From Smithella sp. PtaU1.Bin162 (GTDB lineage Bacteria > Desulfobacterota > Syntrophia > Syntrophales > Smithellaceae): a stretch of DNA of 64,000 nt. The notes under the pieces were generated by a model that saw nothing but the letters and a program-made list of their open reading frames with translations, was not told the origin of the DNA and made no database searches. The position numbers were made by a program, and so were the translations under genes. Shown here piece after piece: positions 9,177 to 46,864 of this stretch; position 1 is the stretch's first letter, and each line of letters begins with the position of its first letter. The DNA is taken from the NCBI GenBank assembly GCA_002068015.1, contig MVRV01000029.1, forward strand, positions 114,426 to 178,425. Direction: 5' to 3'.

Positions 9177-9944
9177 TTACAATCCTCGTTGAAGTATTTC
9201 CTGCGCCAGTTCCATATATGTGATGGCTCCGCGCGATTTAATGTCATAAAGTATTATGGGTAATCCATGACTGGGGCTTTCCGAAAGCCGGACATTGCGT
9301 GGTATTACCGTTTGGAATACCTTATTGCCGAAATGTTTACGCACATCTTCGCTGACCCGGTGAGAAAGCAAATTACGCGCATCAAACATGGTCAGCAATA
9401 TACCTCCTAAAGATAAGCGTGGATTTAATTGGGCTTGCACCAATTTTACGGTGTTCAACAAATAACCTAATCCCTCCATTGCAAAGTACTCGCACTGCAG
9501 GGGAACTATCAGATAGTCGGAAGCGACCAGGGCATTGATTGTCATCACTCCCAATGACGGTGGACAGTCAATTACTATAAATTCATAGCTCCTGTCCATT
9601 GATTTTAATAAATGCCGCAGCCGTACTTCCCGTTCTTCGACATTGACAAATTCAACTTCCAGGCCGATCAAATCCTGATTCGCCGGAATTACATCAAGGT
9701 GTGGTATCTCCGTAGAAAAAATAACTTTTTCCAGCGGTTCTTGACCGATCATGGCGGAATATAAATTTTTGGTCCGGGATGCGCTGCGATCTATTCCCAT
9801 GCCGCTTGACGTATTACCCTGGGAATCACCGTCAATAAGCAGCGTTTTTTTTTCGGCGGCAGCCAGAGAAGCAGATAAATTAATCGCGGTGGTCGTTTTA
9901 CCGACCCCACCTTTTTGATTCGCTATACATATAATATTATTCAT
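9177..9944 (-). CDS. parA: chromosome partitioning ATPase ParA/Soj
   Basis: Deviant Walker A motif KGGVGKTT. I prefer the ATG at 9944 (MNNIICIANQKGGVGKTT) over the TTG at 9983 in the ORF track. Confidence 0.93.
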   Translation of the reverse strand: MNNIICIANQKGGVGKTTTAINLSASLAAAEKKTLLIDGDSQGNTSSGMGIDRSASRTKNLYSAMIGQEPLEKVIFSTEIPHLDVIPANQDLIGLEVEFVNVEEREVRLRHLLKSMDRSYEFIVIDCPPSLGVMTINALVASDYLIVPLQCEYFAMEGLGYLLNTVKLVQAQLNPRLSLGGILLTMFDARNLLSHRVSEDVRKHFGNKVFQTVIPRNVRLSESPSHGLPIILYDIKSRGAITYMELAQEILQRGL

Positions 9945-10034
9945 TATTTTATAAGGAGCGGCCCGGAAAGATCCCCAAGCCAAACTGCCGTTACACCTAG
10001 CATAAAAAAGTTATTTTTAGAAGGTTTTTTTACC

Positions 10035-10697
10035 TTATTTTGTCTTTTTTCCGACAATAATTTTTCGCGGGGAGCCGGAGCTGCTTTGAATTGTATTATA
10101 TTGAAATAATTGATAATAATTATAAGGAAAGGCCGTGGCATTTTGCGGTGAAAATTCACATTTAATATCACTGCCTTTGAGCGCAATTAGAGTGCCTCCC
10201 GGGACGAGAAAATATGTCCCGTAAGACAGCATCTCCGGCAGCTTGAAAGCTGCCCGGGAAATCATAATATCGAAAAAAAATTGCCAATTTTCGGCTTGCT
10301 GCAAAATTTCTACACGGTTTGCTAAAACGAAAGCGTCCGTCAGATTCAGCAAGCGGAGAATGTGTTTCAGGAAAGAAACTTTTTTGCGGTTTATTTCCAC
10401 AAGATAAAGCTTAAGGGAAGGCAGGGCGATTTTTAAGGGAATACCGGGAAAACCAGCGCCGCACCCTATATCTATAAGACGGGCGTCTTTTTTTTCAATG
10501 AAGTGCAAAGCCGTCAGAGAATCCTGAAAATGTCTGCCCACGATTTCCCGGGCCGACTTTGCGGAAATCAAATTTATTTTTGCATTCCACCGTAATAATT
10601 CCTGCTGATAGAGGTCAAATTGCGTGAGTTGTCCGGTACTTAAATTCCAGCCCATTTTTTGTGCCGCTAATGCCAATTCTTGCAGTTGATTTTCCAT
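10035..10697 (-). CDS. rsmG: 16S rRNA (guanine527-N7)-methyltransferase RsmG/GidB
   Basis: 220 aa with the SAM-binding motif DIGCGAGFPGIPL. It sits in the conserved position upstream of parAB. Confidence 0.9.
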   Translation of the reverse strand: MENQLQELALAAQKMGWNLSTGQLTQFDLYQQELLRWNAKINLISAKSAREIVGRHFQDSLTALHFIEKKDARLIDIGCGAGFPGIPLKIALPSLKLYLVEINRKKVSFLKHILRLLNLTDAFVLANRVEILQQAENWQFFFDIMISRAAFKLPEMLSYGTYFLVPGGTLIALKGSDIKCEFSPQNATAFPYNYYQLFQYNTIQSSSGSPRKIIVGKKTK

Positions 10698-10797
10698 AAT
10701 GTATTAATAGCAAAAGGATATGGTGCAGGCAAATAAAAATTATCCGTGCATTTCTTTTCTTCCTGGAATAAAAAGAATTTTTTCGGGAGGCAGGAAA

Positions 10798-11535
10798 ATG
10801 CAGGGAAAATCTGTCACAAAAAACATCAGCATTGTTTTGTATAAACCAAAATATGCCGGAAATGTCGGGGCTGTCGCGCGCGCAGCAAAAAACATGGGCA
10901 TCGGGAATATCGTTGTTGTGGGAGCTGCCGAATTAAATCCTGCCGAGATGAAACAAAGATCAACACATCTGGCCGTCGATGTTCTGGATAAAATAAAATA
11001 TTTTGACGATATCGACACAGCGCTTGCTGATTTTCAATATATTGTGGGGACAACCGCCCGTGTTGGTAAAGCCCGCGGACCTTTTGGTACTCCGCGCAAC
11101 GTTGCGCAGAAAATCGTTCTTCTGGCCCGCAAAAACAAGGTGGCGTTACTTTTCGGGCCCGAAGATACGGGTCTGGCAAACAAAGAATTACATTATTGTC
11201 ATGCTGTCGTTACTATTCCTTCCACCAGAGATTTTAAATCGCTTAACCTTTCTCATGCGGTAATGATTCTCTGTTATGAAATTTTCACAGCGACACTGCC
11301 TCCGAATGATCCAGCACCGCTCAAGTGGGCGCGCTCGGCGGAACTGGAGGGAATGTACGCGCAAATTCAGGAGCTGCTCGCGGAAATCGGTTTTTTGAAT
11401 CCGGAAAATCCTGAGTATTGGATGATGCATCTACGCAGGTTTTTTGCCCGGGGTGGGTTATTGTCCCGGGAAGTAAAGATAATTCGTGGAATCTGCCGCC
11501 AACTGGCATGGGCGGCGCGCCACAAAACAACTTGA
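10798..11535 (+). CDS. SpoU/TrmH-class RNA 2'-O-methyltransferase, TrmJ-like
   Basis: N-terminus IVLYKPKYAGNVGAVARAAKNMG and the later LFGPEDTGL and SLNLSHAV motifs are typical of TrmJ/LasT. The ATG at 10798 follows GGGAGG, so the ORF-track start at 10720 looks over-extended. Confidence 0.8.
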   Translation: MQGKSVTKNISIVLYKPKYAGNVGAVARAAKNMGIGNIVVVGAAELNPAEMKQRSTHLAVDVLDKIKYFDDIDTALADFQYIVGTTARVGKARGPFGTPRNVAQKIVLLARKNKVALLFGPEDTGLANKELHYCHAVVTIPSTRDFKSLNLSHAVMILCYEIFTATLPPNDPAPLKWARSAELEGMYAQIQELLAEIGFLNPENPEYWMMHLRRFFARGGLLSREVKIIRGICRQLAWAARHKTT

Positions 11536-11660
11536 CTTTAGAGGACATCTCTCATAGGAAAAGCCGGTAAGTAAGAAATAAGCTGGCACGAATATTTTGT
11601 CTTCCTGCTGCAAAATAAAACATTAACTATTGCAGACAAGACCAATGGAGGGTTAATTTT

Positions 11661-12818
11661 ATGAGGAAAATATTTTCTTTTACCGGAGCGAAAAAAATTA
11701 TTTTCGGTAGCGGGTCTTTTCACGGTTTAGTAAATCATATTAAGGAACTGAATGCCAAAAATCCGTTGGTGGTTATTGATAAAAATCTGGCCCAGGCCGG
11801 TTTTCAGGAAAAAGTGGCCAATCTGCTTATTCCGGAAGGTATGAAATATACTGTTTATGACAAGGTCGAGCCGGAGCCCCGCATTGAACTTGCCGATGAA
11901 GGTGCCGCCCTTGCCGTTAAAAATAAATGCGACCTAGTTATCGGCATCGGAGGTGGCAGTGCCATGGATGTAGCCAAAGCGATAGCCGTTATTGCCACGA
12001 ATAAAGGAAGTGCGGTCGATTATCTGGGGTTGAATAAAGTTGTCCGGCCCGGTCTGCCGAAAATAATGATTCCCACAACGGCCGGGACCGGCAGCGAAGT
12101 TACTTTCACTGCTGTTTTTGTTCGTAAGAATCTAAAGAAAAAAGAAGGCATGAACAGTCCCTATCTTTATCCGGAGCTTGCGCTGCTGGATCCGGAACTG
12201 ACGCTTTCCCTGCCTCCCCGTCCCACAGCTGAAACAGGCATTGACGCACTGTGTCATGCCATTGAATCATACACATCCGTGAATGCCTCACCTATGAGCG
12301 AACTATTCTCTCTCGATGCAATAGCGATCATTGCCGGAAATCTGCGCACCTGTGTTCATGACGGTAAAAACTTGCAGGCGCGGGAAAATATGCTGCTGGC
12401 GAGTCTGTATGCCGGATTAGGCTTGGCTAATGCGGGAGTCACGGCTGTACATTCGCTTTCCTATCCGCTGGGCGGCAAATACGGCATTGGTCATGGGCTG
12501 GCCAATACCCTGATGCTGCCTTCGGTCATGGCTTTCAATCTGCCTGCCGCCCTCGATAAGTTTGCCGATATTGCCGATGCAATGGGAGAAGCTGTGGATG
12601 ATTTACCGGTACGCGAATCCGCCTATCTGGCGCTGGAAGCCGTGGAGGCCTTAATTGAAGATTGCGGCATCGCCAGTTCTCTGGCCGAGTTCGGTATTAA
12701 GGAAAAGGATTTTCCGGCGCTGGCCGATGTGGCGCTCACGGTGGCGCGGCCGCTGGAAAATAATCCCCGCAAAGTTACCAGAGAAAATGCAATCGAAATA
12801 TATACCGATGCCTATTGA
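11661..12818 (+). CDS. iron-containing (group III) alcohol dehydrogenase
   Basis: 385 aa with GIGGGSAMDVAK, PTTAGTGSE and metal-ligand His motifs (ALCHAIES, HSLSYPLGG...GHG). Confidence 0.85.
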   Translation: MRKIFSFTGAKKIIFGSGSFHGLVNHIKELNAKNPLVVIDKNLAQAGFQEKVANLLIPEGMKYTVYDKVEPEPRIELADEGAALAVKNKCDLVIGIGGGSAMDVAKAIAVIATNKGSAVDYLGLNKVVRPGLPKIMIPTTAGTGSEVTFTAVFVRKNLKKKEGMNSPYLYPELALLDPELTLSLPPRPTAETGIDALCHAIESYTSVNASPMSELFSLDAIAIIAGNLRTCVHDGKNLQARENMLLASLYAGLGLANAGVTAVHSLSYPLGGKYGIGHGLANTLMLPSVMAFNLPAALDKFADIADAMGEAVDDLPVRESAYLALEAVEALIEDCGIASSLAEFGIKEKDFPALADVALTVARPLENNPRKVTRENAIEIYTDAY

Positions 12819-12887
12819 TGATGACATTGCGCTGCAATGTGGAATGGTCACAGGACAGGTTTATTGAATTAATTCAAGGAGGAATAC

Positions 12888-14090
12888 ATGGCTGGTGCAG
12901 AAATGATCGGCAAAGAAGAAATCAGGGAAGTAATGGATGTGCTCGAAACAGGCATCCTGATGAGATATGGTTTTGATAAAGAAAGAAGAGGCATCTATAA
13001 AGTAAGACAATTTGAAGAAGAATTTGCCGGATATTGCAAAGCAGGTTATGCTTTGGGAGTAACTTCCGGTTCGGCGGCACTCAAGGTAGCGCTTACGGCA
13101 CTCGATGTCGGTCCCGGAGATGAAGTACTGGTACCGTGCTTCACGTTTTTGGCGACTTATGAAGCAGTTATGGAAGTGGGTGCCATTCCCGTTATGGTTG
13201 ATATTGACGACACGCTCAACCTTGATCCGCAGGAAATTGAAAGAAAAAAAACACCATACACCAAAGCCATAATTCCTGTACACATGTGTGGTTCAGCAGC
13301 CAGAATCGATAAAATTATGGAAGTGGCCCGCAAGAACAAACTGCTGGTCCTGGAAGATAACGCCCAAGGTTGCGGAGCAAGCTTTCAGGGTAAGAAACTG
13401 GGCAGCTTCGGTGAGATGGGCTGTTTCAGTTTTGACTATGTGAAAACCGTAACCACCGGTGAAGGCGGGATGATAATCACCGATAGTCTTGATTTGTATC
13501 ACCGTGCCGAATGGTATCACGACCACGGCCACGATCATAATCCCCAAGTCAGCCGTGCTCTGGAAGGCAGAACGATCCTCGGCTTCAATTACAGGATGAA
13601 TGAATTGCAAGGGGCGTTGGGGCTCGCGCAATTGCACAAGCTTGATTATATTGTAGCTGAACAAAAGAAAAATAAACAGATTATTAAAGATGCACTGGCC
13701 CAGGTTCCGGGTGTGAAGTTCCGTACACTTCCTGATCCGGCGGGAGATTCCGCCACCTTCTTGGCTTTCAATCTGCCGGAGGAAGGCCTGGCGCAAAGGT
13801 TTCAGAATATGCTTTCGGCCGAAGGCGTGGATACCGTCTGCTACAAAAGAAATTTATGGCATTATGTTCCGAACTGGGAACATTTTCTGGCGCGTTCCAC
13901 GGCCAGTTCCAAAAAATATCCGTTTACCGATCCGACTTACAAAGGTAAAGTGCAATATACGAGAGAGAGCATTCCCCAGGCGGAAGATATTTTAGGACGG
14001 ACTCTCGTGATGGGCATATCGGTAAAAATGAGTCCGGAAAAATTGAATTCCATTAAAAAAGGAATAGAACAGGCTGCGAAAAATATGTAG
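12888..14090 (+). CDS. DegT/DnrJ/EryC1/StrS-family PLP aminotransferase
   Basis: 400 aa with GDEVLVPCFTF and the PLP-lysine context FSFDYVKTVTTGEGG. Confidence 0.85.
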   Translation: MAGAEMIGKEEIREVMDVLETGILMRYGFDKERRGIYKVRQFEEEFAGYCKAGYALGVTSGSAALKVALTALDVGPGDEVLVPCFTFLATYEAVMEVGAIPVMVDIDDTLNLDPQEIERKKTPYTKAIIPVHMCGSAARIDKIMEVARKNKLLVLEDNAQGCGASFQGKKLGSFGEMGCFSFDYVKTVTTGEGGMIITDSLDLYHRAEWYHDHGHDHNPQVSRALEGRTILGFNYRMNELQGALGLAQLHKLDYIVAEQKKNKQIIKDALAQVPGVKFRTLPDPAGDSATFLAFNLPEEGLAQRFQNMLSAEGVDTVCYKRNLWHYVPNWEHFLARSTASSKKYPFTDPTYKGKVQYTRESIPQAEDILGRTLVMGISVKMSPEKLNSIKKGIEQAAKNM

Positions 14091-14111: not shown

Positions 14112-14150
14112 AAAAAGCCGCACTTTGTAAAAGAATGTGCGGCTTTTTTA
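14112..14150 (+). terminator. rho-independent terminator
   Basis: AAAAAGCCGCAC (14112-14123) pairs with GTGCGGCTTTTT (14137-14148), followed by a T-run, 20 nt after the aminotransferase stop. Confidence 0.75.
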
Positions 14151-14400
14151 TGCTTAGAACATACAACAATAATGATCGGGCGGAGAAACTGTAACAGGTG
14201 TTTTGATCTAATGATAATAAAGAACTCTTCATTATCCCATAGTTATTATTGTTAAAATTCCTTTCCTGGCCGTCATGTTCGGAAATGTGTTGTTTTTTCC
14301 CACACTTTTTGCTAAGCAATTCTTACAATTCAATAAGTGTTATCGTGCAGACACATCATAGGTATCTATTAATAGTATATTATTCGAAAGAAGAAATAAC

Positions 14401-15786
14401 TTGAAAGAGACCTTAACAAGCAACGAAATTCATGATTTGATATTTGACAGCCTGTTTAAAATGACTGTCGCTATAGTAACGGATTCGCAAGACAGAATCG
14501 CTGCTGTCAACGACCACTATGCAAAAATATTGAATCGTGAAGCAAAAGAGATAATCGGCCGTCCTGTTGTTGAAATTGTTCCCAATACATACATTCCGAT
14601 AGTCCGACAAAAAGGAAATCCGGAGGTCCGGCTTTTTACCCTGTTTAACGGCGAAAAAGTTGTGGCCAGTTACGTTCCCTTTATCAAAGATAAGAAGGTA
14701 GTCGGTGTGTTTGCTTATTCTTCCGTAAACACCACGGAATGTCTGAATACGCTCTCGACAATGGATATAATAGCTCGTTTGAACGACGAGATGAATCAAT
14801 TTAAAAATGAATTGCAGAAATTAAGGGGATCCAAATACTCTTTAAATAACATCATCGGTTCTTCCGTGAAGATGCAGGGAACAAAAGAACTGGTCAAAAA
14901 AGTAGCGCAAACAAAATCAACCGTATTAATAACCGGCGAGACGGGGACGGGCAAGGAATTGTTTGCCCACGCCATTCATCAGGCGAGCCACCGCAGCCAT
15001 CATCCCTTTATCGCCTTGAATTGTGCCGCCATTCCCCGCGAACTGATCGAATCGGAATTATTCGGTTATGAAGAAGGCGCATTCAGCGGTGCAAAAAAGG
15101 GCGGTAAGCCCGGAAAATTCGAATTGGCGCACCAGGGGACATTATTTCTCGATGAAATAGATCAATTGCCGCTGCCTCTGCAATCCAAAATATTAAGGGC
15201 TATTCAGGAAAAAGAGTTTGAAAGGGTGGGCGGTACGAAAAACATTCGTCCGGATATCCGCCTGATATGCACCTCCAACAGGAACCTGAGAGAGCTGGTG
15301 GAGAAAGGAGAATTCCGGGAGGATTTATATTATCGTATTAATGTAGTGTCTTTATATGTACCGCCGCTTCGGGAGCGGTTGGACGACATTCCCGATCTGG
15401 TCAGGCATTTAATTAATAAAATAAACAGAGAGCTGGGCCTGAACATCACCGGAATTCACAAAGGTATCCTGGAATCTTTTCAGGGGTATCACTGGCCGGG
15501 CAATGTCCGGGAACTGGAACACATTTTGGAAAGAGCCGCCAATTTTGCTCTCTCCGGAGAGCTGCAGTCTTATCATTTTGAAAAATTTGTACCAAGATTA
15601 TTTGATGGCGTAATAAAAGAATCTATTGGAAAACCAATGAATTTAAACGAGCAAAAGGTCAGAATGGAGAGGGAAGCCATTATTAACGCTTTGAATGTTA
15701 CAAAAGGTAATAAAAAAAGAGCTTCCGAGATCCTGCAAATCGACAGAAGCATCCTTTATAAGAAAATTCAACGCTATAAAATTTAG
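14401..15786 (+). CDS. sigma-54-dependent transcriptional activator with N-terminal PAS domain
   Basis: 461 aa. It has a PAS-like N-terminus, an AAA+ core ([23 protein letters not shown] as the GAFTGA-type loop, TLFLDEI) and a C-terminal Fis-type HTH ([18 protein letters not shown]). The start is TTG and is uncertain. Confidence 0.9.
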
Positions 15787-15887
15787 ACATCAGAAAATCC
15801 CTGTAACAACCGGAGAAAAATGGGCAAAGCAGGGACGGGGAACATAACCTTGATTGGTCAAAGGAAGGAATGAAAAGAGGAGCATCA

Positions 15888-16814
15888 ATGATTCATAACT
15901 TCAGGGAGTTAATGGAAGCGGCAACCAAAAGCGGACCAAAAAGAATCGTTGTGGCGGCAGCAGACGAAAACGAAACGCTCAATGCAATTGTTCAGGCATC
16001 CCGGATGAAACTCGTTTTGCCTACTCTGGTCGGCAACAAGGAATGGATCGAGATCATGCTGGACAAAAAGGACATTCCTAAAGGGAGCTTTGAGATTATT
16101 CATGAGAAGGATTCGATAAAGGCAGCCGCCGTTGCTGCACAGATAGTCCGGGAGGGTAGCGCCGATATTCTTATGAAAGGCGATGTTGTCACCTCAAAGT
16201 TCCTGCAGGCGGCTCTGGGATCGCCCGGGAACCTCAAGAGCGGTCTTTTCAGCGATGTTGAAGTCTATGAAGATGTTAGAGAAGATGCCCGTCTGGTGTT
16301 GGTAAGCGATGGTGGAGTGAACATATCCCCCGGCATTAAACAGAAGCTGGAGATCATCAGGAATGCCGTTGCCGTTGTGCATCGCCTCGGTATCAAGAGT
16401 CCGAAGGTTGCGCTTCTGTCCGGATCGGAAAAGGTACATCCTGATTTTCAATCAACCATTGACGCAGTTGCCCTGGTGAAAATGTGCCAGGATGGAGCCG
16501 TGGATGATTGCGTGGTTGATGGTCCGTTTGCTCTGGATAATGCCATAGATCTTGCTTCCGCCCGTGCGAAAGGGGTGGAATCGCCTGTGGCAGGCAGTGC
16601 AAATATTCTCATCATGCCTAATCTGGAAGCCGGCAATATCTTCTGCAAATGCCTCCAGTACTACGCAGGAAGGATGCTCATCCATGTGGGCATGGGTGCC
16701 AAAGTTCCCATCCTGATTGATTCGCGCACAGCCAAAGCGGAAGAAAAGTTGCACTCTATCGCGCTGGCCAAACTCATCTGTGAGAGTTCCCGGCAGGAAA
16801 GAGAGGCGGAATAA
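15888..16814 (+). CDS. phosphate butyryl/acetyltransferase-family phosphotransacylase (Ptb-like)
   Basis: Collinear similarity to clostridial Ptb (VVAAADE..., MKGDV, VVDGPFALDNA, MPNLEAGNI). The ATG at 15888 follows GAGGAG; 15870 is an alternative start. Confidence 0.8.
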   Translation: MIHNFRELMEAATKSGPKRIVVAAADENETLNAIVQASRMKLVLPTLVGNKEWIEIMLDKKDIPKGSFEIIHEKDSIKAAAVAAQIVREGSADILMKGDVVTSKFLQAALGSPGNLKSGLFSDVEVYEDVREDARLVLVSDGGVNISPGIKQKLEIIRNAVAVVHRLGIKSPKVALLSGSEKVHPDFQSTIDAVALVKMCQDGAVDDCVVDGPFALDNAIDLASARAKGVESPVAGSANILIMPNLEAGNIFCKCLQYYAGRMLIHVGMGAKVPILIDSRTAKAEEKLHSIALAKLICESSRQEREAE

Positions 16815-16816
16815 AC

Positions 16817-17263
16817 ATGAAGGACAAAAACTACTTTATTCGGCAGATATCTGTCTTTATAGATAATAAACCGGCCACGCTGGCCGGGATGGCGCGCCGC
16901 TTGGCGGAAAAAAACATTAATCTGCGGGCCCTCTCTCTGGCGGAAACACGCGATTTCGGGACTGCCCGCATTATTGTCGCCGATCCTGATCAATGTGTCG
17001 AAGTGTTGAAAAAAAACGGGTACCATTTGATGGAAAACGATGTACTCGCTGTAGAAGTTGCCGACCGGCCCGGTGGCATGGCGGATGTTCTTGAATGTAT
17101 AGCCCGGGAGCATGTCAGCGTGGAATATGCTTATGCCATGATAGAAAAGCGGGAGGGCAAGGCAGTCATCATATTGCGGGTTGATAATATGGAGAGGGCG
17201 ATCATGGCTTTGCGGAATAACAATGTCCGTCTCCTCACCGGGAAGGATGTGGCGTTTATATAA
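16817..17263 (+). CDS. ACT-domain (small-molecule-binding) protein
   Basis: 148 aa with two ACT-like beta-alpha-beta-beta-alpha-beta halves (ISVFIDNKPATLAGMARRLAEKNINL..., AVEVADRPGGMADVLECIAREHVSV). It starts 2 nt after the Ptb-like stop. Confidence 0.7.
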   Translation: MKDKNYFIRQISVFIDNKPATLAGMARRLAEKNINLRALSLAETRDFGTARIIVADPDQCVEVLKKNGYHLMENDVLAVEVADRPGGMADVLECIAREHVSVEYAYAMIEKREGKAVIILRVDNMERAIMALRNNNVRLLTGKDVAFI

Positions 17264-17269
17264 TTGGTT

Positions 17270-17309
17270 TGTAGTCAATTGCTACACTTTGTTGTAGTTT
17301 TTAACTACA
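17270..17309. promoter_or_regulatory. tandem 17-bp palindromes TGTAG-N7-CTACA (candidate enhancer-binding-protein sites)
   Basis: TGTAGTCAATTGCTACA (17270-17286) and TGTAGTTTTTAACTACA (17293-17309). Their centres are 23 bp apart, about 58 and 81 bp upstream of the -24 element at 17359. Confidence 0.45.
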
Positions 17310-17357
17310 TTATCCATTTTACAAATGACAAACGGTCGAATTTATAAGGTATTATTT

Positions 17358-17373
17358 TGGCATATAAAATGCG
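17358..17373 (+). promoter_or_regulatory. sigma-54 (-24/-12) promoter
   Basis: TGGCATATAAAATGCG has GG-N10-GC with exact canonical spacing, against the consensus TGGCAC-N5-TTGCW. It lies 42 nt upstream of the BKACE ATG. Confidence 0.6.
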
Positions 17374-17414
17374 TACAGGGTTTAAGTTAAAAAAATGAAA
17401 AGGATAGAATAATT

Positions 17415-18350
17415 ATGGATAACAAAATTATTATTACAGCGGCAATCACCGGTTCTGTTCATATCCCCACCATGAGCGACTATCTTCCCATAACACCGGA
17501 TCAGATTGTAGAAGATGCTGTTGTGGCACATGAGGCAGGTGCTGCTATTGCCCACATTCATGTCAGGAATCCTGAAAACGGCCTGCCTACATCCAGTCCT
17601 GAACTTTTTATGGAAGTATGCAGCAGGATCAAAGCCAGATGCAATATTGTTCTGCTTCCCACCACCGGCGGCGGCATGAACCAGACCACGGAAGAAAAAC
17701 TGATCCCGATCAAACAATTGAAGCCGGAGATGTGCTCTTTTGATCCGGCGCCTTTTAATTTCGGCATATTTCAACTTGCCGGTCGTTTTGAAAAATATAA
17801 ATACGATTGGGAAAAAGATTACCTGGAGATGTGTAAAAATGTTACTTTCCGGCCGACTTTCAGTGATGACATGATCTACGCCAAGACCTTTCTGGAAATT
17901 GAGACGAAGCCGGAGCTGGAAATTTATGAACTGGGACATATCTCTTATGTCAAATGGCTTTTAGAAGAAAATCTTTTAAAAACCCCCGTTCATCTCCAGT
18001 TTGTTTTTGGTCCCATGGTCGGCTGGATGACTCCTTCCGTAAAACATCTGGTACTGATCCATGACGAAGCCATAGAAGTGCTTGGTGAAAATAATTTTAC
18101 CTGGTCGGTGGCAGCAGGCGGCCGTTTCCAGATACCTATAACAACAACTGCTATGGCTATGGGCGCTAAAAATGTCAGAGTTGGTCTGGAAGATTCCATC
18201 TATGCAGGAAAGAGTATTTTGGCCAAAACCAGCGCAGAACAGGTCAATATAGTAAAAAGAATTGCCAAAGAATTTAGTCTGGAACCGGCCAGCTCCGATG
18301 AAGCCAGACAGATTTTAGGATTAAAAGGGCTGGACAAGGTTAATTTTTAA
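17415..18350 (+). CDS. BKACE-family beta-keto acid cleavage enzyme (3-keto-5-aminohexanoate cleavage enzyme family, DUF849), paralog 1
   Basis: 311 aa with IIITAAITGSVHIPTMS, AAIAHIHVRNPENG and RVGLEDS motifs characteristic of the Kce/BKACE TIM-barrel Zn enzymes. Confidence 0.85.
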   Translation: MDNKIIITAAITGSVHIPTMSDYLPITPDQIVEDAVVAHEAGAAIAHIHVRNPENGLPTSSPELFMEVCSRIKARCNIVLLPTTGGGMNQTTEEKLIPIKQLKPEMCSFDPAPFNFGIFQLAGRFEKYKYDWEKDYLEMCKNVTFRPTFSDDMIYAKTFLEIETKPELEIYELGHISYVKWLLEENLLKTPVHLQFVFGPMVGWMTPSVKHLVLIHDEAIEVLGENNFTWSVAAGGRFQIPITTTAMAMGAKNVRVGLEDSIYAGKSILAKTSAEQVNIVKRIAKEFSLEPASSDEARQILGLKGLDKVNF

Positions 18351-18423
18351 CAGTGCCCGAATAACGACATTGACGGGAATCAATGAATTCCAGAAGTTTT
18401 AAGTAATAAAAATTGGGGGCATC

Positions 18424-20004
18424 ATGCACTACGGAGAAGATTTCTACAACGCAGCGGATTGGTTAATCGACCGTAACGTTCGCGAAGGCCGCGGCGATAA
18501 GATAGCCGTCTATTCGCAGCACAAAAATTTAACGTATAAAGAACTCCAGACCATGATTAACAAAACCGGTAATTTACTCAAAAAAATGGGAATCGGGATT
18601 GATGATCGTGTCATGATGCTTGTACTGGATATACCTATGTTTCTTGGTGTATTTTACGGCGCAATCAAAATCGGAGCTAATCCGATTCCCATCAATACTA
18701 TGATGATGCCGGACGATTATAAATATTATCTTAACGACAGCCGCGCCAAAGTTCTTTTTATCTCGGACGCGCTCGTTCCGCAGATAGAAGCAATCAAGGA
18801 AGACCTGCTCTATCTCAGAGATGTAGTAGTTATTAATGAAGTTACAGGATTGGATCTGCCTTACAATCATCTTTATAATATGGCCTCGGAAAACCTGGAA
18901 TGCGCCTATACGACAGCTGATGATAACTGTTTCTGGCTGTACAGTTCAGGATCAACAGGAGCGCCTAAAGGTGTAATCCATGCGCATAAAGACATGGAAA
19001 CAGTGGCCGTAAACTATGCCCGGGGCGTGCTGGGTATGAAAGAAAGCGATATAACCCTGTCGGCAGCCCGTCTGTTCTTTGCCTATGGTCTCGGTAATGC
19101 CGGATATTTCGCATTTTCCGTCGGCGGTTCTACAATTCTTCATTCAGCTGCGCCTAAGCCGGAAGGAATGTATGATCTGTTTAAAAAATTCAAACCAACT
19201 GTATATTTCGGTGTACCGACCCTTTATGGTGCAATGCTGGCTCTTCAGGAACAGAGAGACAAAGAAGCAGGCCTCAAGAATCCGGGACCATCGGATGCGC
19301 ATGCTTGCGGCTCCCTGCGCCTTTGCGTATCAGCCGGCGAAGCTCTGCCTGCTGAACTCTACAACAGATGGAAAGCCCGTTATGGTATAGATATTTTAGA
19401 CGGTATCGGATCAACGGAACTGCTGCACATATATATTTCCAACCGTCCTGATGATATCAGACCGGGGGCAAGCGGAAAAGCAACTCCGCATTACGAACTT
19501 AAGATCGTGAATGATGAAGGTAAGGAAGCGGAAGTCGACGAGCCGGGTACAATGATGGTAAGATGCGACAGCGCCGCCATGCTGTACTGGAAAAAACGTG
19601 CAAAAACACGCGCCACAATGCAAGGCGAATGGCTCAATACAGGCGATAAATACTACCGGGACAAGGACGGTTACTATTTTTGTGCCGGCCGCGGCGACGA
19701 TATGCTGAAAGTCGGCGGTATCTGGGTGTCTCCGGTGGAAGTAGAGGCATGCTTAATTGAGCATCCGGCAGTACTGGAAGCAGCCGTAACAGGTAAAGAA
19801 GACGAAGAAAAACTCGTCAAGCCCAAGGCATGGGTTGTACTGAAACAGGGGCAAAAGCCGTCGGAGGCACTGGCCAAAGAATTACAGCGGTGGTGTCTTG
19901 ATAAAATGGCCAAGTACAAATATCCGCGCTGGATTGAGTTTGTTGAAGCACTTCCCAAAACACCGACGGGAAAGATTCAGCGCTTTAAACTGCGCGCCAA
20001 GTAA
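18424..20004 (+). CDS. AMP-forming acyl-CoA ligase, benzoate-CoA-ligase-like subfamily
   Basis: 526 aa with the AMP-binding P-loop YSSGSTGAPKG, the TGD motif and a C-terminal PKTPTGKIQR. Confidence 0.85.
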   Translation: MHYGEDFYNAADWLIDRNVREGRGDKIAVYSQHKNLTYKELQTMINKTGNLLKKMGIGIDDRVMMLVLDIPMFLGVFYGAIKIGANPIPINTMMMPDDYKYYLNDSRAKVLFISDALVPQIEAIKEDLLYLRDVVVINEVTGLDLPYNHLYNMASENLECAYTTADDNCFWLYSSGSTGAPKGVIHAHKDMETVAVNYARGVLGMKESDITLSAARLFFAYGLGNAGYFAFSVGGSTILHSAAPKPEGMYDLFKKFKPTVYFGVPTLYGAMLALQEQRDKEAGLKNPGPSDAHACGSLRLCVSAGEALPAELYNRWKARYGIDILDGIGSTELLHIYISNRPDDIRPGASGKATPHYELKIVNDEGKEAEVDEPGTMMVRCDSAAMLYWKKRAKTRATMQGEWLNTGDKYYRDKDGYYFCAGRGDDMLKVGGIWVSPVEVEACLIEHPAVLEAAVTGKEDEEKLVKPKAWVVLKQGQKPSEALAKELQRWCLDKMAKYKYPRWIEFVEALPKTPTGKIQRFKLRAK

Positions 20005-20378
20005 ATTATAAGCCCGTTTTTTAGCACTGAATATACATGAAAAGTTGCAGTCAAGATGAACCGCTTTGTGCATAAGCGCAATAAAAAAGGGTGTCATTAA
20101 TAATAATGAGAGGACATTTTCTACCGGTTTAGATTTCGATTGTTGTTTATGTCTGTATCCGGTAGAGTGCCTTGTGGGCCGGCGGCTTGTTTTTTACTGA
20201 TGATACCCCCGCAGCTCATCCGGTTAGAGTATCCTTATTGTTCGCCTTCCGGGCGAGAGTTGCATGAACAGTGAAAAATTTCATGCAGCTTAAGCAGGAG
20301 GGGCAAGAGGATGTATTTTAGGCGTTTGAACGGTAAAACGCTTAAAACAATTTATTTCAGACAAGGAGGAAATCATTT

Positions 20379-21431
20379 ATGAAGAAAAAGCTGTTTGTTG
20401 GCGTAGCTGTAATGGCGCTTCTGATTGCCTTGGTGTCGTCGGCCATGGCACAGGACAAAGTCATCAAGTGGAAAGTACAGGGGTTTGTTCCGGCGGGAAT
20501 GCTTTTCCATGAGACACTGGTACGTACTGCTAATTTAGTCAAAGAAGTGACCGGGGGAAGGCTGATCTGGGAAGTATATCCGGCAGGCGCCCTGGTACCT
20601 CCGTTTGAAGGGCTCAAGGCCGTAAGCGACGGCGTATATGACGTCAATTACAGTTATACCGGGCAATGGGTGGGTAAAATCCCAGTCGCACCGCTCTTTA
20701 CCGCAGCTCCCGGCGGTCTGAATGTCGTGGATATGCAGATGTGGCTGGAATATGGCGGTGGAAAACAACTTTTCCAGGAAATGTATGATAAATACGGCTA
20801 CAACGTCAAAGTGTTTCTGGGTGCGCCGATCTCCATGGAAATTTTTCTCTGGTCCAAGAAACCTCTGCGTACACTTAAAGATTTTAAAGGACTCAAACTG
20901 CGCATGATGCCGGTTATGGGCGATGTTTTGACAAAGAACGGCCTTCCCGTTGTGTTCATGCCTGCCGGCGAAATCATTCCTAACCTGCAGCGCGGTGTTA
21001 TCGATGCCGCCGAATACAGTATTCCCGCCTTCGATAAAAGCCTGGGAATCTGGCAGGTCTGCAAATACCTTCAAGTTCCGGGGATTCACCAGCCCGCCTC
21101 CCAGACGGAATTTATCGTGAACAAAAAATCCTATGAAGCACTGCCGGCTGATCTGAAAGTTTTGTTGGATGCAGCCATATGGAAATCCCGTTTAGAAGAC
21201 TGGCTCTGGATGGAGGCTAAAAATCTGGAAGCAATGGACTTCTTCAAAGAAAAGGGTATCACTATAGTGCAGATGGATCCGGAAACCGTCAGGACCTTTA
21301 CCAAGTGGGCCCAGGATTATCTGGATGAACGAGGCGCCAAGGACGAATTTTTCGGTAAGGTCTGGAATTCGCAAAAAGCTTTCGGCAAGAAATGGTATCC
21401 TTACTCCAAAATGTTTACACTGCCCCATTGA
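20379..21431 (+). CDS. TRAP transporter substrate-binding protein (DctP family)
   Basis: 350 aa with a signal peptide (…ALVSSAMA/QD) and DctP-type fold motifs. It is followed by the Q and M subunits. Confidence 0.85.
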   Translation: MKKKLFVGVAVMALLIALVSSAMAQDKVIKWKVQGFVPAGMLFHETLVRTANLVKEVTGGRLIWEVYPAGALVPPFEGLKAVSDGVYDVNYSYTGQWVGKIPVAPLFTAAPGGLNVVDMQMWLEYGGGKQLFQEMYDKYGYNVKVFLGAPISMEIFLWSKKPLRTLKDFKGLKLRMMPVMGDVLTKNGLPVVFMPAGEIIPNLQRGVIDAAEYSIPAFDKSLGIWQVCKYLQVPGIHQPASQTEFIVNKKSYEALPADLKVLLDAAIWKSRLEDWLWMEAKNLEAMDFFKEKGITIVQMDPETVRTFTKWAQDYLDERGAKDEFFGKVWNSQKAFGKKWYPYSKMFTLPH

Positions 21432-21539
21432 TTAATGGAATAACATTATAATATCCGTCTGTAGGGCTTTCCGGCTTATCAACCGGGAAGCCCTGCAGGG
21501 CAGTTTCTCCGCAGAGGGCGGAGTGAGAAAGGAATTGTT

Positions 21540-22052
21540 ATGGAAAAGGTTTTAGGTGTCATTGACGCAATCAGCGAATGGACGGGGAAACTCAGCAGTT
21601 TTCTGATCGCCATCCTGACGCTGGTTATTTGTTATGATATTATAGTACGTTATGTCTTTAGCTCCCCTACCGCCTGGGGCTATGATGTCACCTATATGAT
21701 TTACGGTGTGTACGCCATGCTCGGTATGGCTTACTGTGACAAAATGAAGGGACATGTGCGGATGGATTTAATTTACAGCAACCTGTCGGAGCGGGGCAAA
21801 GCATGGATGGACGCCATCTGCTATCTGATTTTATTCTTTCCCGCACTGATCGTTATAACATACAAGTGCGGCGACCATTCCATATGGGCGCTGCTTGCGG
21901 GTGAGCGGTCATCCGGTAGTGTCTGGCGCCCGTATTTAGGTCCTTTTAAACTGCTTATCACTTTCGGATTTCTGTTGCTCATTTTGCAGGGGGTTGCGGG
22001 TTTTCTGCGTTCGCTCGCTACAGCCCTGAAAGAAGGAAGGAGGATCTCATGA
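21540..22052 (+). CDS. TRAP transporter small permease (DctQ)
   Basis: 170 aa with four hydrophobic helices. It overlaps dctM by 4 nt (ATGA). Confidence 0.8.
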   Translation: MEKVLGVIDAISEWTGKLSSFLIAILTLVICYDIIVRYVFSSPTAWGYDVTYMIYGVYAMLGMAYCDKMKGHVRMDLIYSNLSERGKAWMDAICYLILFFPALIVITYKCGDHSIWALLAGERSSGSVWRPYLGPFKLLITFGFLLLILQGVAGFLRSLATALKEGRRIS

Positions 22053-23371
22053 GTCCTGAACTTACTACAATATTAATGTTTCTGAGTTTGCTGGTTCTGC
22101 TCACGGGATTTCCCCTGGCCTTTGGTATTGCTTCCATGGGAATTTTATTCGGTTATCTGACCGGGGGCAATGCTTTTCTTTATATGATTCCGCAGCGCGT
22201 TATTAACGGTACCCTGTCCGAATATATCCTGGCAGCGGTCCCGCTGTTCATATTTATGGGAGTCAGCATCAGCTCCTCAGGTGTGGCGGAACGATCTTTT
22301 ATAGTGCTCCAGCGATGGATGAGCAGCATCAGGGGAGGATTGGCCATCGCCACAATTACTCTGGCCATTGTTTTTGCCGCCTGTGTCGGTGTTGTCGGTG
22401 CCTCGGTAACGGCCATCGGTATTCTGGCCATTCCGGCCATGCAGAAAGCACGCTACGCCGATTCACTGGCCACAGGAGTGGTCTGTGCGGGCGGTACACT
22501 GGGAATACTGATTCCGCCCAGTATCATGCTTATCCTTTATGCCCCTATTGCCGGAGTGTCGGTAGTGGACATGTATGCGGGAGCGGTTGTCCCCGGTTTG
22601 CTGCTGGGCATACTTTACATAGTTTATGTTATTTTGCGGACGAAGTTCAATCCGGAGATGGGTCCCAGCCTGCCTAAGGAAATGGGTCTGAAATTTTTCT
22701 CGCGGGAGTCCCTCGTACAGGGATTTAAATATCTGGCACCGCCGGTTTTGCTGGTGATATTGGTCATGGGTTCTCTTTTTCTGGGCATTGCCTCCCCTAC
22801 GGAGGCAGGCGCGGTAGGTTCCGTCGGAGCCATTGCCCTGGGATTCATTTACCGTACCATCACCTGGCAGTCCTTCAAGAATGACTGCTATCTGACTTTG
22901 CGCATTACCGCGATGATCATTTTCATCGCCATTGCCGCGAGTCTCTTTACGGGAGCATTTTTGAACGCCGGTTGCGGTCAGGTCATCACGGATGTTTTGC
23001 TGGGTCTGGGCCTGGGGCGCTGGGGTATATTCATTGCGGTGCTGATCATCGTGCTGATACTGGGGTGCTTTATTGACTGGATCGGCATACTTTTAATCAT
23101 GGTGCCGATTTTCGCACCTATCCTGACCACCCTGAAGTTTGATCCGCTTTGGGTAGGTTTGGTGGTTTGTACAAGCTTGCAGGTATCGTTCCTGTCGCCG
23201 CCTTTTGCCTACTCCATTTTTTATGCCAAGGCCATTACTCCGAAGACACCTCTGACGGATATTTATCGCGGAGTTATGCCGTTTGTCGCCATTCAACTGC
23301 TGGTTACTATGCTTTGCATTATTTTTCCGGCTTTGTGTCTCTGGTTGCCGAATCTTTTGTCGCAGGGCTGA
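22049..23371 (+). CDS. TRAP transporter large permease (DctM)
   Basis: 440 aa polytopic membrane protein with typical DctM sequence. Confidence 0.9.
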   Translation: MSPELTTILMFLSLLVLLTGFPLAFGIASMGILFGYLTGGNAFLYMIPQRVINGTLSEYILAAVPLFIFMGVSISSSGVAERSFIVLQRWMSSIRGGLAIATITLAIVFAACVGVVGASVTAIGILAIPAMQKARYADSLATGVVCAGGTLGILIPPSIMLILYAPIAGVSVVDMYAGAVVPGLLLGILYIVYVILRTKFNPEMGPSLPKEMGLKFFSRESLVQGFKYLAPPVLLVILVMGSLFLGIASPTEAGAVGSVGAIALGFIYRTITWQSFKNDCYLTLRITAMIIFIAIAASLFTGAFLNAGCGQVITDVLLGLGLGRWGIFIAVLIIVLILGCFIDWIGILLIMVPIFAPILTTLKFDPLWVGLVVCTSLQVSFLSPPFAYSIFYAKAITPKTPLTDIYRGVMPFVAIQLLVTMLCIIFPALCLWLPNLLSQG

Positions 23372-23386
23372 AGATAAACGATTTCC

Positions 23387-23426
23387 GTTCAGGCAGAGGT
23401 GGAGAATTTCTCGCCGCTGCCTGAAC
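23387..23426 (+). other. intercistronic stem-loop after dctM
   Basis: 10-bp perfect stem GTTCAGGCAG/CTGCCTGAAC with a 20-nt loop and no T-run. It is a possible mRNA-stability or processing element rather than a full terminator. Confidence 0.4.
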
Positions 23427-23482
23427 CGGCCTGACGGCACGTGGCGTTACTGCAATACGTTAATTTTAGAAAGGAGGAATAA

Positions 23483-24448
23483 ATGAGCATATTAATTACC
23501 GGAGGCACGGGATTTATTGGTGCCCATGTCGCCAGGCTGGAACTGGCAGCAGGAGAAAAAGATGTTTTTGTTTTTGATATTAATCCGTCCGCGAAGCTTT
23601 TGGATGACGTGGCGGACAAAGTTTCCATAGTCCGGGGTGATCTCGGTAATTTCAGCCATGTCATGAATATTGTAAAAACGGCCCGGCCGAAAAAAATCTT
23701 TCATATCGGCGGAATGCTTTCGGTTCCGTCGGATGCCGATCCGTTTGCTTCCTTCCGCGCCAACGCGCTGGGCACCTATCATATTCTGGAAGCGGCCAGA
23801 TTACTGGAAGTGCCGCAGGTAATCTTTACCAGTACCCTGGCTACTTATGGGCTGGATTTGGAAGAAGGTGCTGCCATCAGTGATTACTCCTTGCAGCGGC
23901 CGCAGCTTTTCTATGGAGTTACCAAGGTATTCGGCGAGCTGCTGGGCCAGTTTTATCGCAGAAAATATGGGCTGGATTTTCGCGGTGTGCGTTATCCTTC
24001 CATTGTGGGCCCCGGAGTCAAAACGCCCGGTGTCGTTCAATATACGAGCTGGATGATCGAAGAAAGCATCAAAGGTAATCCTTTTATTGTCAAGGTGCCA
24101 CCCGAAACCAGAACCCCCGTCATGTATTTCAAGGATGCCGCCCTGGCCGTGATCAATCTGGCTAATGCTCCCCGGGAAAATATTAAGATGGTTAATTATC
24201 TGATAGCCGGTGTTAAACCCATCGCAACGGCTGATGAGCTTGCTGATATCGTCAGAAAGAAAGTTCCGGGTGCCCGGATTGAGTTCCAAACTGATCCGGA
24301 ATTGCAGAAGATATTAAGCAAACTTTTGCATCCGATCGATGACAGTACCGCTCACAATGAATGGGGTTGGAAAGCAAAGTACGATCAGGCAATGATAGTG
24401 GATGACTTTATTGCGGAGATGAAAAATTTCCCGCAGAGATATGCATAA
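23483..24448 (+). CDS. extended-SDR NAD-dependent epimerase/dehydrogenase (L-threonine-3-dehydrogenase-like subgroup)
   Basis: 321 aa with the Rossmann motif ILITGGTGFIGAH and a YxxxK region (FYGVTKVFGE). Confidence 0.8.
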   Translation: MSILITGGTGFIGAHVARLELAAGEKDVFVFDINPSAKLLDDVADKVSIVRGDLGNFSHVMNIVKTARPKKIFHIGGMLSVPSDADPFASFRANALGTYHILEAARLLEVPQVIFTSTLATYGLDLEEGAAISDYSLQRPQLFYGVTKVFGELLGQFYRRKYGLDFRGVRYPSIVGPGVKTPGVVQYTSWMIEESIKGNPFIVKVPPETRTPVMYFKDAALAVINLANAPRENIKMVNYLIAGVKPIATADELADIVRKKVPGARIEFQTDPELQKILSKLLHPIDDSTAHNEWGWKAKYDQAMIVDDFIAEMKNFPQRYA

Positions 24449-24505
24449 ATTGCCGGGCTTGTTGCAACCGGCCAGGCGAAAGTAGTTGCAGGAAAGGAGT
24501 ATCAT

Positions 24506-25474
24506 ATGAAAGCAGCTGATATAAAGAAAATTTGTGCTTTGGGAGGAGGAGGCGTTATCGGCTCCAGCTGGTGTACTAATTTTTTATGGAAGGGCTATGC
24601 CGTAACGGTTTACGATGTAAATGATGAAGCTCTGGCGCTGGCCAAAAAACGCATAACCGCCAATCTGGAATATCTGGCGGAAAAAAAGATTATCACGCAA
24701 GAAGCATCCCGGCAGGCCCTGGCTCAGGCATCTTATACAACCGATCAACGGAAGGCCTTGCAGGATGTTCAGTATGTACAGGAATCAGGTCCGGAAAACT
24801 ATGATGTCAAAAAAGCAGTTCTGGCGATCCTGGACAAATACGGCAGTCCGGAAACCATCTTTGCCAGCAGCACTTCCGGGTTGCTGATTACGGAAATCGC
24901 CAAAGGTTCGCAACATCCGGAGCGCTGCATCGGGGCGCACCCTTATAATCCTCCTCATTTAATCCCGCTTGTGGAAATTACCAAAGGCGAGCAGACCAGC
25001 GATGCCGTCGTCAAAGTTGCCAATGATTTCTACCGGCTGCTGGGAAAAGAACCGATTGTCCTGCAAAAAGAGGCACTCGGTTTTATATCCAACCGGTTGC
25101 AGATTGCTCTGTACAGAGAAGCGGTAAACCTCGTGCTGACGGGAGTGTGTTCGGTTGAGGATGTGGACAAGGCCGTTTGTTACGGACCCGGGTTGCGGTA
25201 TGCCTTGCTGGGCCCGAATTTGATTTTTCACTTGGGTGGAGGTCAGGTCGGACTCAAAGGAGTTTTGGAACATATTGGTCCCTCGATGGAACTGTGGTTG
25301 AAGGATATGGCTGTTTGGAAGGAATTTCCCGCCGGCAGCAAAGATATACTGCAGAAGGGAGTGCTGCAGGAGATGCAGGGACGCAAACAGGAAGAGGGAA
25401 AAACAACAGAAGAAATTTCACGCTGGCGTGATGAAAAACTTCTGAATCTGCTGAAATTATTAAATCGGATTTAG
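24506..25474 (+). CDS. 3-hydroxyacyl-CoA-dehydrogenase-fold enzyme of the L-carnitine-dehydrogenase (LcdH) type
   Basis: 322 aa with GGGVIGSSW, QESGPE, SSTSGL, HPYNPPHLIPLVE, GFISNRLQ and GPGLRYALLGP motifs, which match the free-acid LcdH-like subgroup as I recall it. Confidence 0.75.
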   Translation: MKAADIKKICALGGGGVIGSSWCTNFLWKGYAVTVYDVNDEALALAKKRITANLEYLAEKKIITQEASRQALAQASYTTDQRKALQDVQYVQESGPENYDVKKAVLAILDKYGSPETIFASSTSGLLITEIAKGSQHPERCIGAHPYNPPHLIPLVEITKGEQTSDAVVKVANDFYRLLGKEPIVLQKEALGFISNRLQIALYREAVNLVLTGVCSVEDVDKAVCYGPGLRYALLGPNLIFHLGGGQVGLKGVLEHIGPSMELWLKDMAVWKEFPAGSKDILQKGVLQEMQGRKQEEGKTTEEISRWRDEKLLNLLKLLNRI

Positions 25475-25613
25475 AAATTTTTCCCACAGGAATTGTCGGC
25501 GAACCCAAGCAACGGAAAGTCGTTGTTTGGGTTCAGTACAAGAGGCTGGAAAATTGCGTTGTTTTCAGTCGATGTGAATTTTTGTATAAAAAATACAGAT
25601 GGGAGTATAATTT

Positions 25614-26569: not shown

Positions 26570-26602
26570 GCCGTGCATAGTTTAACGTATGCGCGGCTTT
26601 TT
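26570..26602 (+). terminator. rho-independent terminator closing the BKACE/TRAP operon
   Basis: GCCGTGCATA (26570-26579) pairs with TATGCGCGGC (26588-26597) with one G-U wobble, followed by TTTTT. Confidence 0.7.
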
Positions 26603-46730: not shown

Positions 46731-46864
46731 TTTGCTGTTGACCGCAGCCGCAACTCCAGGAGGAATTTTCGGGCAATTTTAACCGCCGAGCGATGACATT
46801 TGCCTGGTCAGATTCCCGTTGACGAATATCTTTACTCAAGATAGAAATAATACCAGGTGTTTTT

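Follow-up and report, generated by a model that had tools for sequence, protein, structure and literature searches.

A predicted sigma-54 promoter with paired palindromic upstream sites in front of a BKACE gene cluster in Smithella sp. PtaU1.Bin162

Paired palindromes and a predicted sigma-54 promoter upstream of BKACE-1

We analyzed a 64-kb stretch of DNA from Smithella sp. PtaU1.Bin162 (contig MVRV01000029.1; the whole stretch is referred to below as the window), with a focus on the 151-bp gap at positions 17264–17414 that separates the gene for an ACT-pair protein from BKACE-1, a gene of the BKACE family. Judged from its sequence and from its relatives, this gap is very likely to be an enhancer-dependent sigma-54 promoter with two sites for the activator encoded at 14401–15786. 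We favor this reading because the combination of sites and promoter, referred to below as the cassette, follows the activator gene and not BKACE-1.

The gap contains two TGTAG-N7-CTACA palindromes and a sigma-54 element. Both palindromes, which had been recognized in an initial annotation of this DNA, are exact: the distal candidate upstream activating site (UAS-1; TGTAGTCAATTGCTACA) is located at 17270–17286, and the proximal candidate site (UAS-2; TGTAGTTTTTAACTACA) at 17293–17309. Their centers are 23 bp apart, at about −106 and −83 relative to a predicted transcription start near 17384, and the two sites lie ~81 and ~58 bp, respectively, from the −24 element. Two copies of the exact palindrome occur in the 64-kb window, where base composition would predict ~0.07; by chance, two exact copies would fall within 40 bp with a probability of ~6 × 10⁻⁶. 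The initial annotation had not found the motif in the other intergenic regions scanned for TGTAG; this holds for the exact palindrome, but a related third site, TGTTGTTTTTTCCCACA, at 14288–14304, had been overlooked.

The predicted sigma-54 promoter (TGGCATATAAAATGCG; 17358–17373) is on the plus strand, 42 bp ahead of the ATG of BKACE-1 (17415) and in the same orientation. As annotated, the invariant GG (17359–17360) and GC (17371–17372) are separated by exactly ten bases. The extended sigma-54 consensus is YTGGCACGrNNNTTGCW. When the element is compared to this consensus in the form TTGGCAT-N5-TTGCT (Nie et al., 2019; PMC6615313), TTGGCAT is matched and the −12 half, ATGCG, has two mismatches. 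Relatives of the window read NTGCN at this position, indicating that the family as such deviates from the consensus there. The promoter is therefore a good one, with GG, GC and TTGGCAT all fitting, but its description as a textbook promoter was overstated, since the −12 element is not TTGCW. The TGGCA-N7-TGC core by itself is not significant, with three occurrences in the window as against 2.5 expected; the weight of the promoter comes from its position and conservation, not from the core match alone. Between UAS-2 and the promoter lies an AT-rich spacer (17310–17357, plus strand; ~74% A+T) that has no terminator hairpin (folding energy −3 kcal/mol, z +0.45) and, in a pattern search, no integration host factor (IHF) site with fewer than two mismatches.

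The protein encoded at 14401–15786 on the plus strand has the domains of a one-component sigma-54 activator, or enhancer-binding protein (EBP), consistent with its initial annotation as such. Pfam searches identified an AAA+ sigma-54 interaction domain (Sigma54_activat, PF00158; 238.5 bits), in which the Walker motifs GETGTGKE and LFLDEI are recognizable in alignment, together with AAA_lid_14 and a C-terminal helix-turn-helix (HTH) domain of the Fis type (HTH_8, PF02954; 41.8 bits, residues 422–459). The PAS sensor domain assigned in the initial annotation is a borderline case: at 22.7 bits, the PAS_4 match is just below the cut-off of 23.1, and several homologues have precomputed PAS_9 or PAS matches, so we refer to the N-terminus as PAS-like. 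The loop that contacts sigma-54 reads GAFSGA in the window protein and in all Desulfobacterota-type orthologues aligned, and GAFTGA in the Bacillota homologue; by its sequence, the change is conservative. The TTG start codon of the activator gene aligns with the Met of orthologues. At its other end the protein terminates in ...RYKI and lacks the ~11-residue C-terminal tail of most Desulfobacterota-type homologues.

The third, degenerate palindrome (14288–14304) is ~100 bp upstream of the activator gene, behind a strong terminator at 14117–14149, and is part of a conserved block, GTGTTG-N7-CAACAC-TTTTTGNTAA, with which the activator gene's own promoter may overlap. In 8 of the 9 foreign activator-homologue loci described below and in a near-identical contig (L086), a counterpart occupies the equivalent position; none was reported in the Bacillota locus L171. 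The third palindrome is thus a candidate autoregulatory operator, and its position suggests autoregulation of the activator gene.

The window carries two EBP genes and a second good −24/−12 site. The second activator (46823–48211), 30 kb from the gap, is of the response-regulator type, with a GSFTGA loop and a candidate promoter of its own. The second sigma-54 element, TGGCACATAAACTGCT (52128–52142, minus strand), precedes by ~40 bp a small gene on the minus strand that has an ATG near 52087 and a signal-peptide-like start; the second activator gene is 4 kb away.

The cassette accompanies homologues of the activator gene

Loci with orthologues of the activator were reached by protein search and by exact-sequence look-ups. 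The protein search found homologues with 62–75% identity in Desulfobacterota-type contigs and with 50–59% identity in Bacillota. A metagenome scan with the activator protein returned nearly exclusively distant EBPs (36–51% identity), together with one 99% identical twin, L086. We read nine foreign loci, from Desulfobacterota-type contigs and one Bacillota genome, in which the homologue is 59–75% identical to the window protein. The cassette was present in all nine. Since one contig (L177) carries two modules and the Bacillota genome (L171) carries three, these loci contribute 12 modules; with the window, the family comprises 13 modules in 10 lineages, placed ahead of genes for the breakdown of beta-keto acids.

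The geometry of the cassette is fixed within narrow limits. Every module has two TGT[A/T/G]G-N7-C[T/A]ACA palindromes whose starts are 22–26 bp apart. The TGG..TGC of the promoter begins 65–69 bp after the start of the proximal palindrome (65 bp in the window, 66–69 bp in the other 12 modules), and the GG-N10-GC spacing is kept in 12 of 12 foreign modules. In an alignment of seven lineages, the palindrome arms, TTGGCA and TGC show no variation, in contrast to the spacers and flanks; TTGGCA and TGC also occur in the further modules. Invariant arms amid drifting spacers and flanks are the pattern expected of protein-binding sites. The genes behind the promoters are always of the same kinds, namely a GntP-like permease or TRAP transporter, a 3HCDH-type dehydrogenase and a BKACE of 307 amino acids, and some modules also head genes for an ApbA-type reductase, a CoA-transferase or a short-chain dehydrogenase/reductase (SDR). 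These target gene kinds hold for the Bacillota genome with three modules as well. In those Desulfobacterota-type loci where the activator gene adjoins the sites, its stop codon falls within UAS-1 or just upstream of it.

By contrast, the control region is not a property of BKACE-1. We examined 80 loci from a genome collection that contain BKACE-1 orthologues with 71–90% identity (from Desulfobacula, Desulfotignum, Desulfospira and others). These were used for phylogenetic footprinting; the palindrome was found in none of the 80, and no conserved −24/−12 element was found among them. The set served as a negative control. In the BKACE-1 orthologue loci that were inspected, an Lrp/AsnC-type gene is located upstream, with a gap of ~30 bp.

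Two further loci mark where the family ends. In Anaerosporomusa subterranea (L174, 6380–6700), whose activator is 53% identical to the window protein, the targets are similar and a TGGCATGGTTTGTGC promoter is present; the upstream repeats are different, and we did not count the locus as a member. Its target genes encode 3HCDH, permease, ApbA and BKACE proteins, and the repeats consist of GGATTGGTTG, which occurs twice, and a CCGACAGTTGTCGG palindrome. From the sequence, the operator appears to have been replaced and the regulon retained. A Peptococcaceae locus with a 55% identical activator was also rejected as a member, its targets being unrelated. With both of these loci outside, the motif family ends between 53% and 59% identity of the activator.

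The sites of the foreign loci alone are sufficient to recover those of the window. A weight matrix built from 15 foreign sites only was scanned over the whole window, against a null distribution with a mean maximum of 13.2 bits and a 95th percentile of 16.9 bits. The three best matches, all of which exceed the 95th percentile, are UAS-1 (17270; 23.2 bits), UAS-2 (17293; 19.4 bits) and the third palindrome upstream of the activator gene (14288–14304; 17.3 bits). The fourth match, TGCTGCTATTGCCCACA at 17540–17556, is inside the BKACE-1 coding region and, at 15.2 bits, below the 95th percentile of the null; it is probably due to chance.

The sites also change in step with the HTH domain of the activator. 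A single residue just ahead of the recognition helix covaries with base 4 of the half-site, Q being paired with A, H with T and K with G. Thus, the window protein and six others read ...EILQIDRS... and have predominantly TGTAG/CTACA sites, two proteins read ...LH(L/V)(D/N)R(T/S)... and have predominantly TGTTG/CAACA sites, and the Bacillota protein reads ...LLKIDRS... and has predominantly TGTGG/CTACA sites. The corresponding segment of the window gene is at ~15700–15786, and homologues P0025, P0031 and P0035 illustrate the covariation. The residue is a candidate specificity determinant, and its covariation ties the sites to the 14401–15786 protein rather than to another regulator.

These observations bear directly on whether the palindromes bind a different protein, either a repressor or the second activator (46823–48211). 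Such a possibility has some basis in the generic nature of the TGT-N11-ACA shape, which is common to many Fis-type HTH proteins (PMC6615313). The sites, however, travel with homologues of the 14401–15786 protein across two phyla, often overlapping the activator stop codon; they covary with its HTH domain; and loci that have just the target gene in common lack them. The second activator, moreover, is a response regulator encoded 30 kb away that has a candidate promoter of its own. We therefore consider a different regulator to be a highly unlikely explanation. The proposal in the initial annotation of a dedicated regulator-operator pair is supported by the presence of the cassette in 9 of 9 activator-homologue loci and 0 of 80 loci that share BKACE-1 only, by the matrix and by the HTH covariation; it needs amendment in that a third related site is located upstream of the activator gene, so that the two sites in the gap are not the only ones.

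In most relatives, the interval between UAS-2 and the promoter also holds a terminator. A strong hairpin followed by a T-run occupies ~50 bp of this interval in 8 of the 9 foreign loci, with folding energies of −16 to −34 kcal/mol and z scores of −4 to −7.9 (for example, L082 7456–7505, L085 7396–7445, L167 6456–6506, and L171 4031–4082 and 7462–7513; both plus-strand modules of L171 have the hairpin). The stem in L167 is wholly different in sequence and has kept its pairing. From its form and position, we take the hairpin to be the predicted terminator of the upstream gene, lodged in the interval between the sites and the promoter. A hairpin is missing from the window and from module a of L177, and these two hairpin-free modules have the shortest spacings of the family (23 + 65 bp in the window, 23 + 66 bp in L177 module a).

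The terminators of the relatives also help to judge whether the palindromes act as RNA, as a hairpin that ends or stabilizes the upstream ACT transcript, and not as protein-binding DNA. As RNA, 17255–17330 folds to −15.2 kcal/mol (z −2.6) and is followed by T-rich sequence, as such a function might predict. A fold of this kind, however, is the automatic consequence of two palindromes whose arms are identical, and the window lacks a canonical U-run. Relatives have a separate and far stronger terminator after the palindromes, so that in those loci the palindromes are not the terminator. It is the arm sequence itself that is conserved, not just its pairing; the stem of the true terminator, in contrast, has been swapped in L167 and still pairs. 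We regard an RNA function of the repeats as extremely unlikely.

Rearrangement of the window lineage and the genes behind the promoter

The genes around the gap are on the plus strand and were assigned with Pfam and, in some cases, NCBIfam. Between the activator gene and the gap are a phosphate butyryltransferase-like (PTA-like) gene (15870–16814) and the ACT-pair gene (16817–17263), both assigned with Pfam and NCBIfam. Behind the promoter are BKACE-1 (17415–18350; Pfam BKACE, 286.7 bits) and a benzoate-CoA-ligase-family acyl-CoA synthetase gene (18424–20004; Pfam, and NCBIfam TIGR02262 with 635 bits against a cut-off of 375). The same-strand string continues at 20379–26537, starting with genes for a TRAP transporter (DctPQM) and going on to an SDR/epimerase (23483–24448), a 3HCDH-type dehydrogenase (24506–25474) and a second BKACE, BKACE-2 (25614–26537), all from Pfam. 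It ends at a strong intrinsic terminator on the plus strand (26570–26602; −23.4 kcal/mol, z −5.9, followed by a T-run).

The SDR, 3HCDH and BKACE-2 genes are of the types that the activator family is predicted to control elsewhere. The BKACE proteins of Desulfobacterota-type homologue loci are 74–80% identical to BKACE-2 and only 45–49% identical to BKACE-1, and this comparison identifies the BKACE-2 type, not BKACE-1, as the predicted ancestral and conserved target. Pattern and matrix scans of the window found no second UAS or −24/−12 element before the TRAP genes or BKACE-2.

In Desulfobacula-type genomes among the BKACE-1 orthologue loci (L001, 2459–6936), a gene of the aromatic amino acid lyase/aminomutase family, a class-III aminotransferase gene and an Lrp/AsnC regulator gene are followed by BKACE-1, benzoate-CoA-ligase-family and TRAP genes. 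One could speculate that this cluster encodes a route that leads from a beta-aryl amino acid to an aryl-CoA via a 3-keto acid. Of this cluster, only the enzyme and transporter part is present in the window, now under predicted sigma-54 control.

Among all loci that were fetched, the window and its twin, L086, are the only ones with the PTA-like and ACT genes between activator and UAS; activator and sites are adjacent in relatives and two genes apart in the window. In the closest syntenic relative, L169, the activator gene, two UAS, a terminator, the promoter and a BKACE-2-like gene come directly after the same ParA-GidB-SpoU-FeADH-DegT genes as in the window. Up to the DegT stop codon (window 9273–14089), L169 and the window share 99.9% identity; L169 then continues with a cassette allele that is 65% identical. 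L086 is 99.5% identical to the window from 14135 onward (14135–19783) and has a different left flank. L169 and L086 are contigs of one metagenome, and the switch between them is at the terminator after the DegT gene. We rejected a simple assembly chimera of these two contigs as the source of the window because 45 bp at the junction match neither exactly. The one-sided identity to L169 and to L086 indicates that the cassette behaves as an exchangeable unit, and the regulator-plus-operon cassette seems, on this comparison, to have been exchanged between co-occurring strains. The PTA/ACT insertion, the lost activator tail, the BKACE-2-type target elsewhere and the synteny with L169 together indicate that the window lineage is a rearranged one, whose cassette is predicted to have acquired BKACE-1, the CoA-ligase gene and the TRAP module.

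Several observations weigh against the sigma-54 reading of the gap. The geometry of the window is at the short edge of the family, with 23 + 65 bp as compared with a mode of 24 + 67–68 bp. The −12 element departs from TTGCW, the activator loop is GAFSGA and not GAFTGA, and the C-terminal tail of most relatives is absent. The correlation between HTH residue and base comprises only three states. No open reading frame with an RpoN box was found in the 64-kb window, and sigma-54 is assumed to be present in this organism, an assumption to which the two EBP genes and the second good −24/−12 site of the window lend only indirect support. Since the embedded terminator is missing, transcription running on from the activator-PTA-ACT genes could express BKACE-1 independently of sigma-54, and read-through of the ACT gene may result in a basal level of expression. 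Finally, the gap at 20005–20378 is structured and may stop the transcript short of the ancestral target genes: at 374 bp (vs ~170 bp in L001) it is unusually long, and it contains inverted repeats of the form CTACCGG...CCGGTAG as well as a weak terminator-like site at 20174–20196. A search for Rfam families over 14–27 kb, which includes this gap, gave no credible match.

Some of these points could also indicate that the cassette is a relic that was inherited with the activator and lost its function after insertion of the PTA-like and ACT genes and attachment of BKACE-1, with expression now due to read-through or to sigma-70. The spacings shortest in the family, the missing terminator hairpin and the lost activator tail are consistent with such decay. 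So is the occurrence of BKACE-1 orthologues elsewhere behind an Lrp/AsnC-type gene with no sigma-54 element, and a weak sigma-70-like match at 17341–17370 overlaps the sigma-54 element. Matches of this kind, however, are within chance, numbering 14 as against 21.7 expected. Decay also predicts something other than what is found in the window, where the family matrix gives its two highest scores to the palindromes, both of them perfect. Moreover, module a of the independent lineage L177 has nearly the same geometry, likewise with no hairpin, and precedes canonical targets, and a second contig, L086, which has a different left flank, matches the region at 99.5% identity. We consider loss of function very unlikely, and retain the reading of the gap as an enhancer-dependent sigma-54 promoter.

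Proposed mechanism and relation to known systems

We propose the following mechanism. Sigma-54 RNA polymerase would occupy 17358–17373 as a closed complex that is unable to start alone. Dimers of the activator would bind the palindromes at about −106 and −83 through the C-terminal Fis-type HTH, and assembly of the active AAA+ oligomer, a ring, would start from the two sites. A signal, most likely a pathway metabolite, would act on the activator through its PAS-like N-terminal domain; the oligomer would contact sigma-54 through its GAFSGA loop across the short AT-rich spacer, and ATP hydrolysis would open the promoter, with transcription starting near 17384. The transcript would cover BKACE-1 and the acyl-CoA synthetase gene and would probably run on through the TRAP, SDR, 3HCDH and BKACE-2 genes to the terminator at 26570–26602. 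The encoded pathway would take up an organic acid, oxidize a 3-hydroxy acid to a 3-keto acid and cleave the latter with acetyl-CoA. The weaker third site upstream of the activator gene would serve autoregulation.

The window element is an uncharacterized example of a well-known type of switch and, as such, is not surprising in principle. Sites of the form TGT-N10-12-ACA are the commonest class of UAS and include those of NifA, FhlA and 15 EBP groups of Clostridiales (Nie et al., 2019; PMC6615313). As in the window, these systems have an inverted TGT/ACA repeat, an activator with a C-terminal Fis-type HTH, multiple sites upstream of −24/−12 and a regulator that is usually encoded beside its target (PMC6615313). 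The window differs from the NifA/FhlA type (TGT-N10-ACA) in that TGT and ACA are separated by 11 bases and the arms are extended to TGTAG/CTACA; by sequence, its sites are thus members of the wider TGT-N10-12-ACA class, not examples of the NifA motif. A BKACE operon is the target of none of the 39 Clostridiales groups named in that study, in which UAS are mostly 100–250 bp from the promoter (PMC6615313), as compared with ~58 and ~81 bp from the −24 element in the window. The one-component EBP regulons of Desulfovibrio vulgaris (Kazakov et al., 2015; PMC4641369) resemble the window in their metabolite-sensing activators and in the co-location of regulator and catabolic operon; they belong to another group of organisms, and the window motif is absent from that study. 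Their sites are palindromes located mostly within ~100 nt of the sigma-54 promoter (PMC4641369), a distance of similar order, indicating that the UAS-promoter distances in the window are normal for EBPs.

The best-scoring named family for the activator is PrdR (NCBIfam NF041552), the clostridial activator of proline reductase, which has the same PAS-AAA+-HTH layout and, like the window sites, belongs to the TGT/ACA-type UAS group. The score of 412.4 bits against a cut-off of 795 led us to reject an assignment to PrdR; the alignment covers just the C-terminal three quarters of the model, and the targets differ.

For the pathway, the closest known counterpart is anaerobic phloroglucinol degradation, whose last two enzymes, (S)-3-hydroxy-5-oxohexanoate dehydrogenase and triacetate acetoacetate-lyase (TAL), match the regulated pair of 3HCDH and BKACE genes (PMC10470551). 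The clusters described here carry organic-acid permeases instead. Against the model for 3,5-dioxohexanoate:acetyl-CoA transferase/TAL (NF053538; cut-off 430 bits), BKACE-1 scores only 339.4 bits and BKACE-2 412.6 bits, both below the cut-off; of the orthologues, that of L082 passes (432.4 bits) and that of L175 does not (417.4 bits). No cyclase-family (DPGC) domain was found in the genes annotated at 8.3–31.1 kb or in those called at the homologue loci, a search that did not extend to phloroglucinol reductase because an SDR gene is present. With no cyclase-family domain found and BKACE scores that straddle the cut-off, we did not adopt phloroglucinol degradation as the pathway. A literature search for BKACE or DUF849 together with sigma-54 found nothing relevant.

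Taking the observations together, we propose with moderate confidence that the window activator is the first recognized example of an undescribed family of one-component EBPs, with a PAS-like domain, an AAA+ domain with GAFSGA and a Fis-type HTH, that is common to Desulfobacterota and Bacillota and dedicated to TAL-like BKACE/3-hydroxy-acid dehydrogenase pathways, and that it acts from a compact, portable cassette. In such a cassette, the activator stop codon may lie within UAS-1 and the terminator of the activator gene itself between UAS and promoter, and one HTH residue (Q/H/K) may set base 4 of the half-site (A/T/G). The cassette may pass as a unit between co-occurring strains and may capture new operons, here BKACE-1, the CoA ligase and the TRAP transporter. 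If this is correct, the compound that binds to the PAS-like domain would reveal which substrate an orphan BKACE family uses.

The general understanding of sigma-54 regulation is unchanged by these findings. Their value is in offering a ready-made regulon for orphan BKACE enzymes of anaerobes, in which the sensor domain should bind the inducer and the true substrate should switch the operon on. The defined family of 17-bp operators, with its candidate specificity residue, would be useful for regulon prediction in metagenomes of sulfate reducers and Firmicutes, and the variants with or without an embedded terminator, and with a captured operon, would illustrate how a sigma-54 control cassette may be rewired in small steps.

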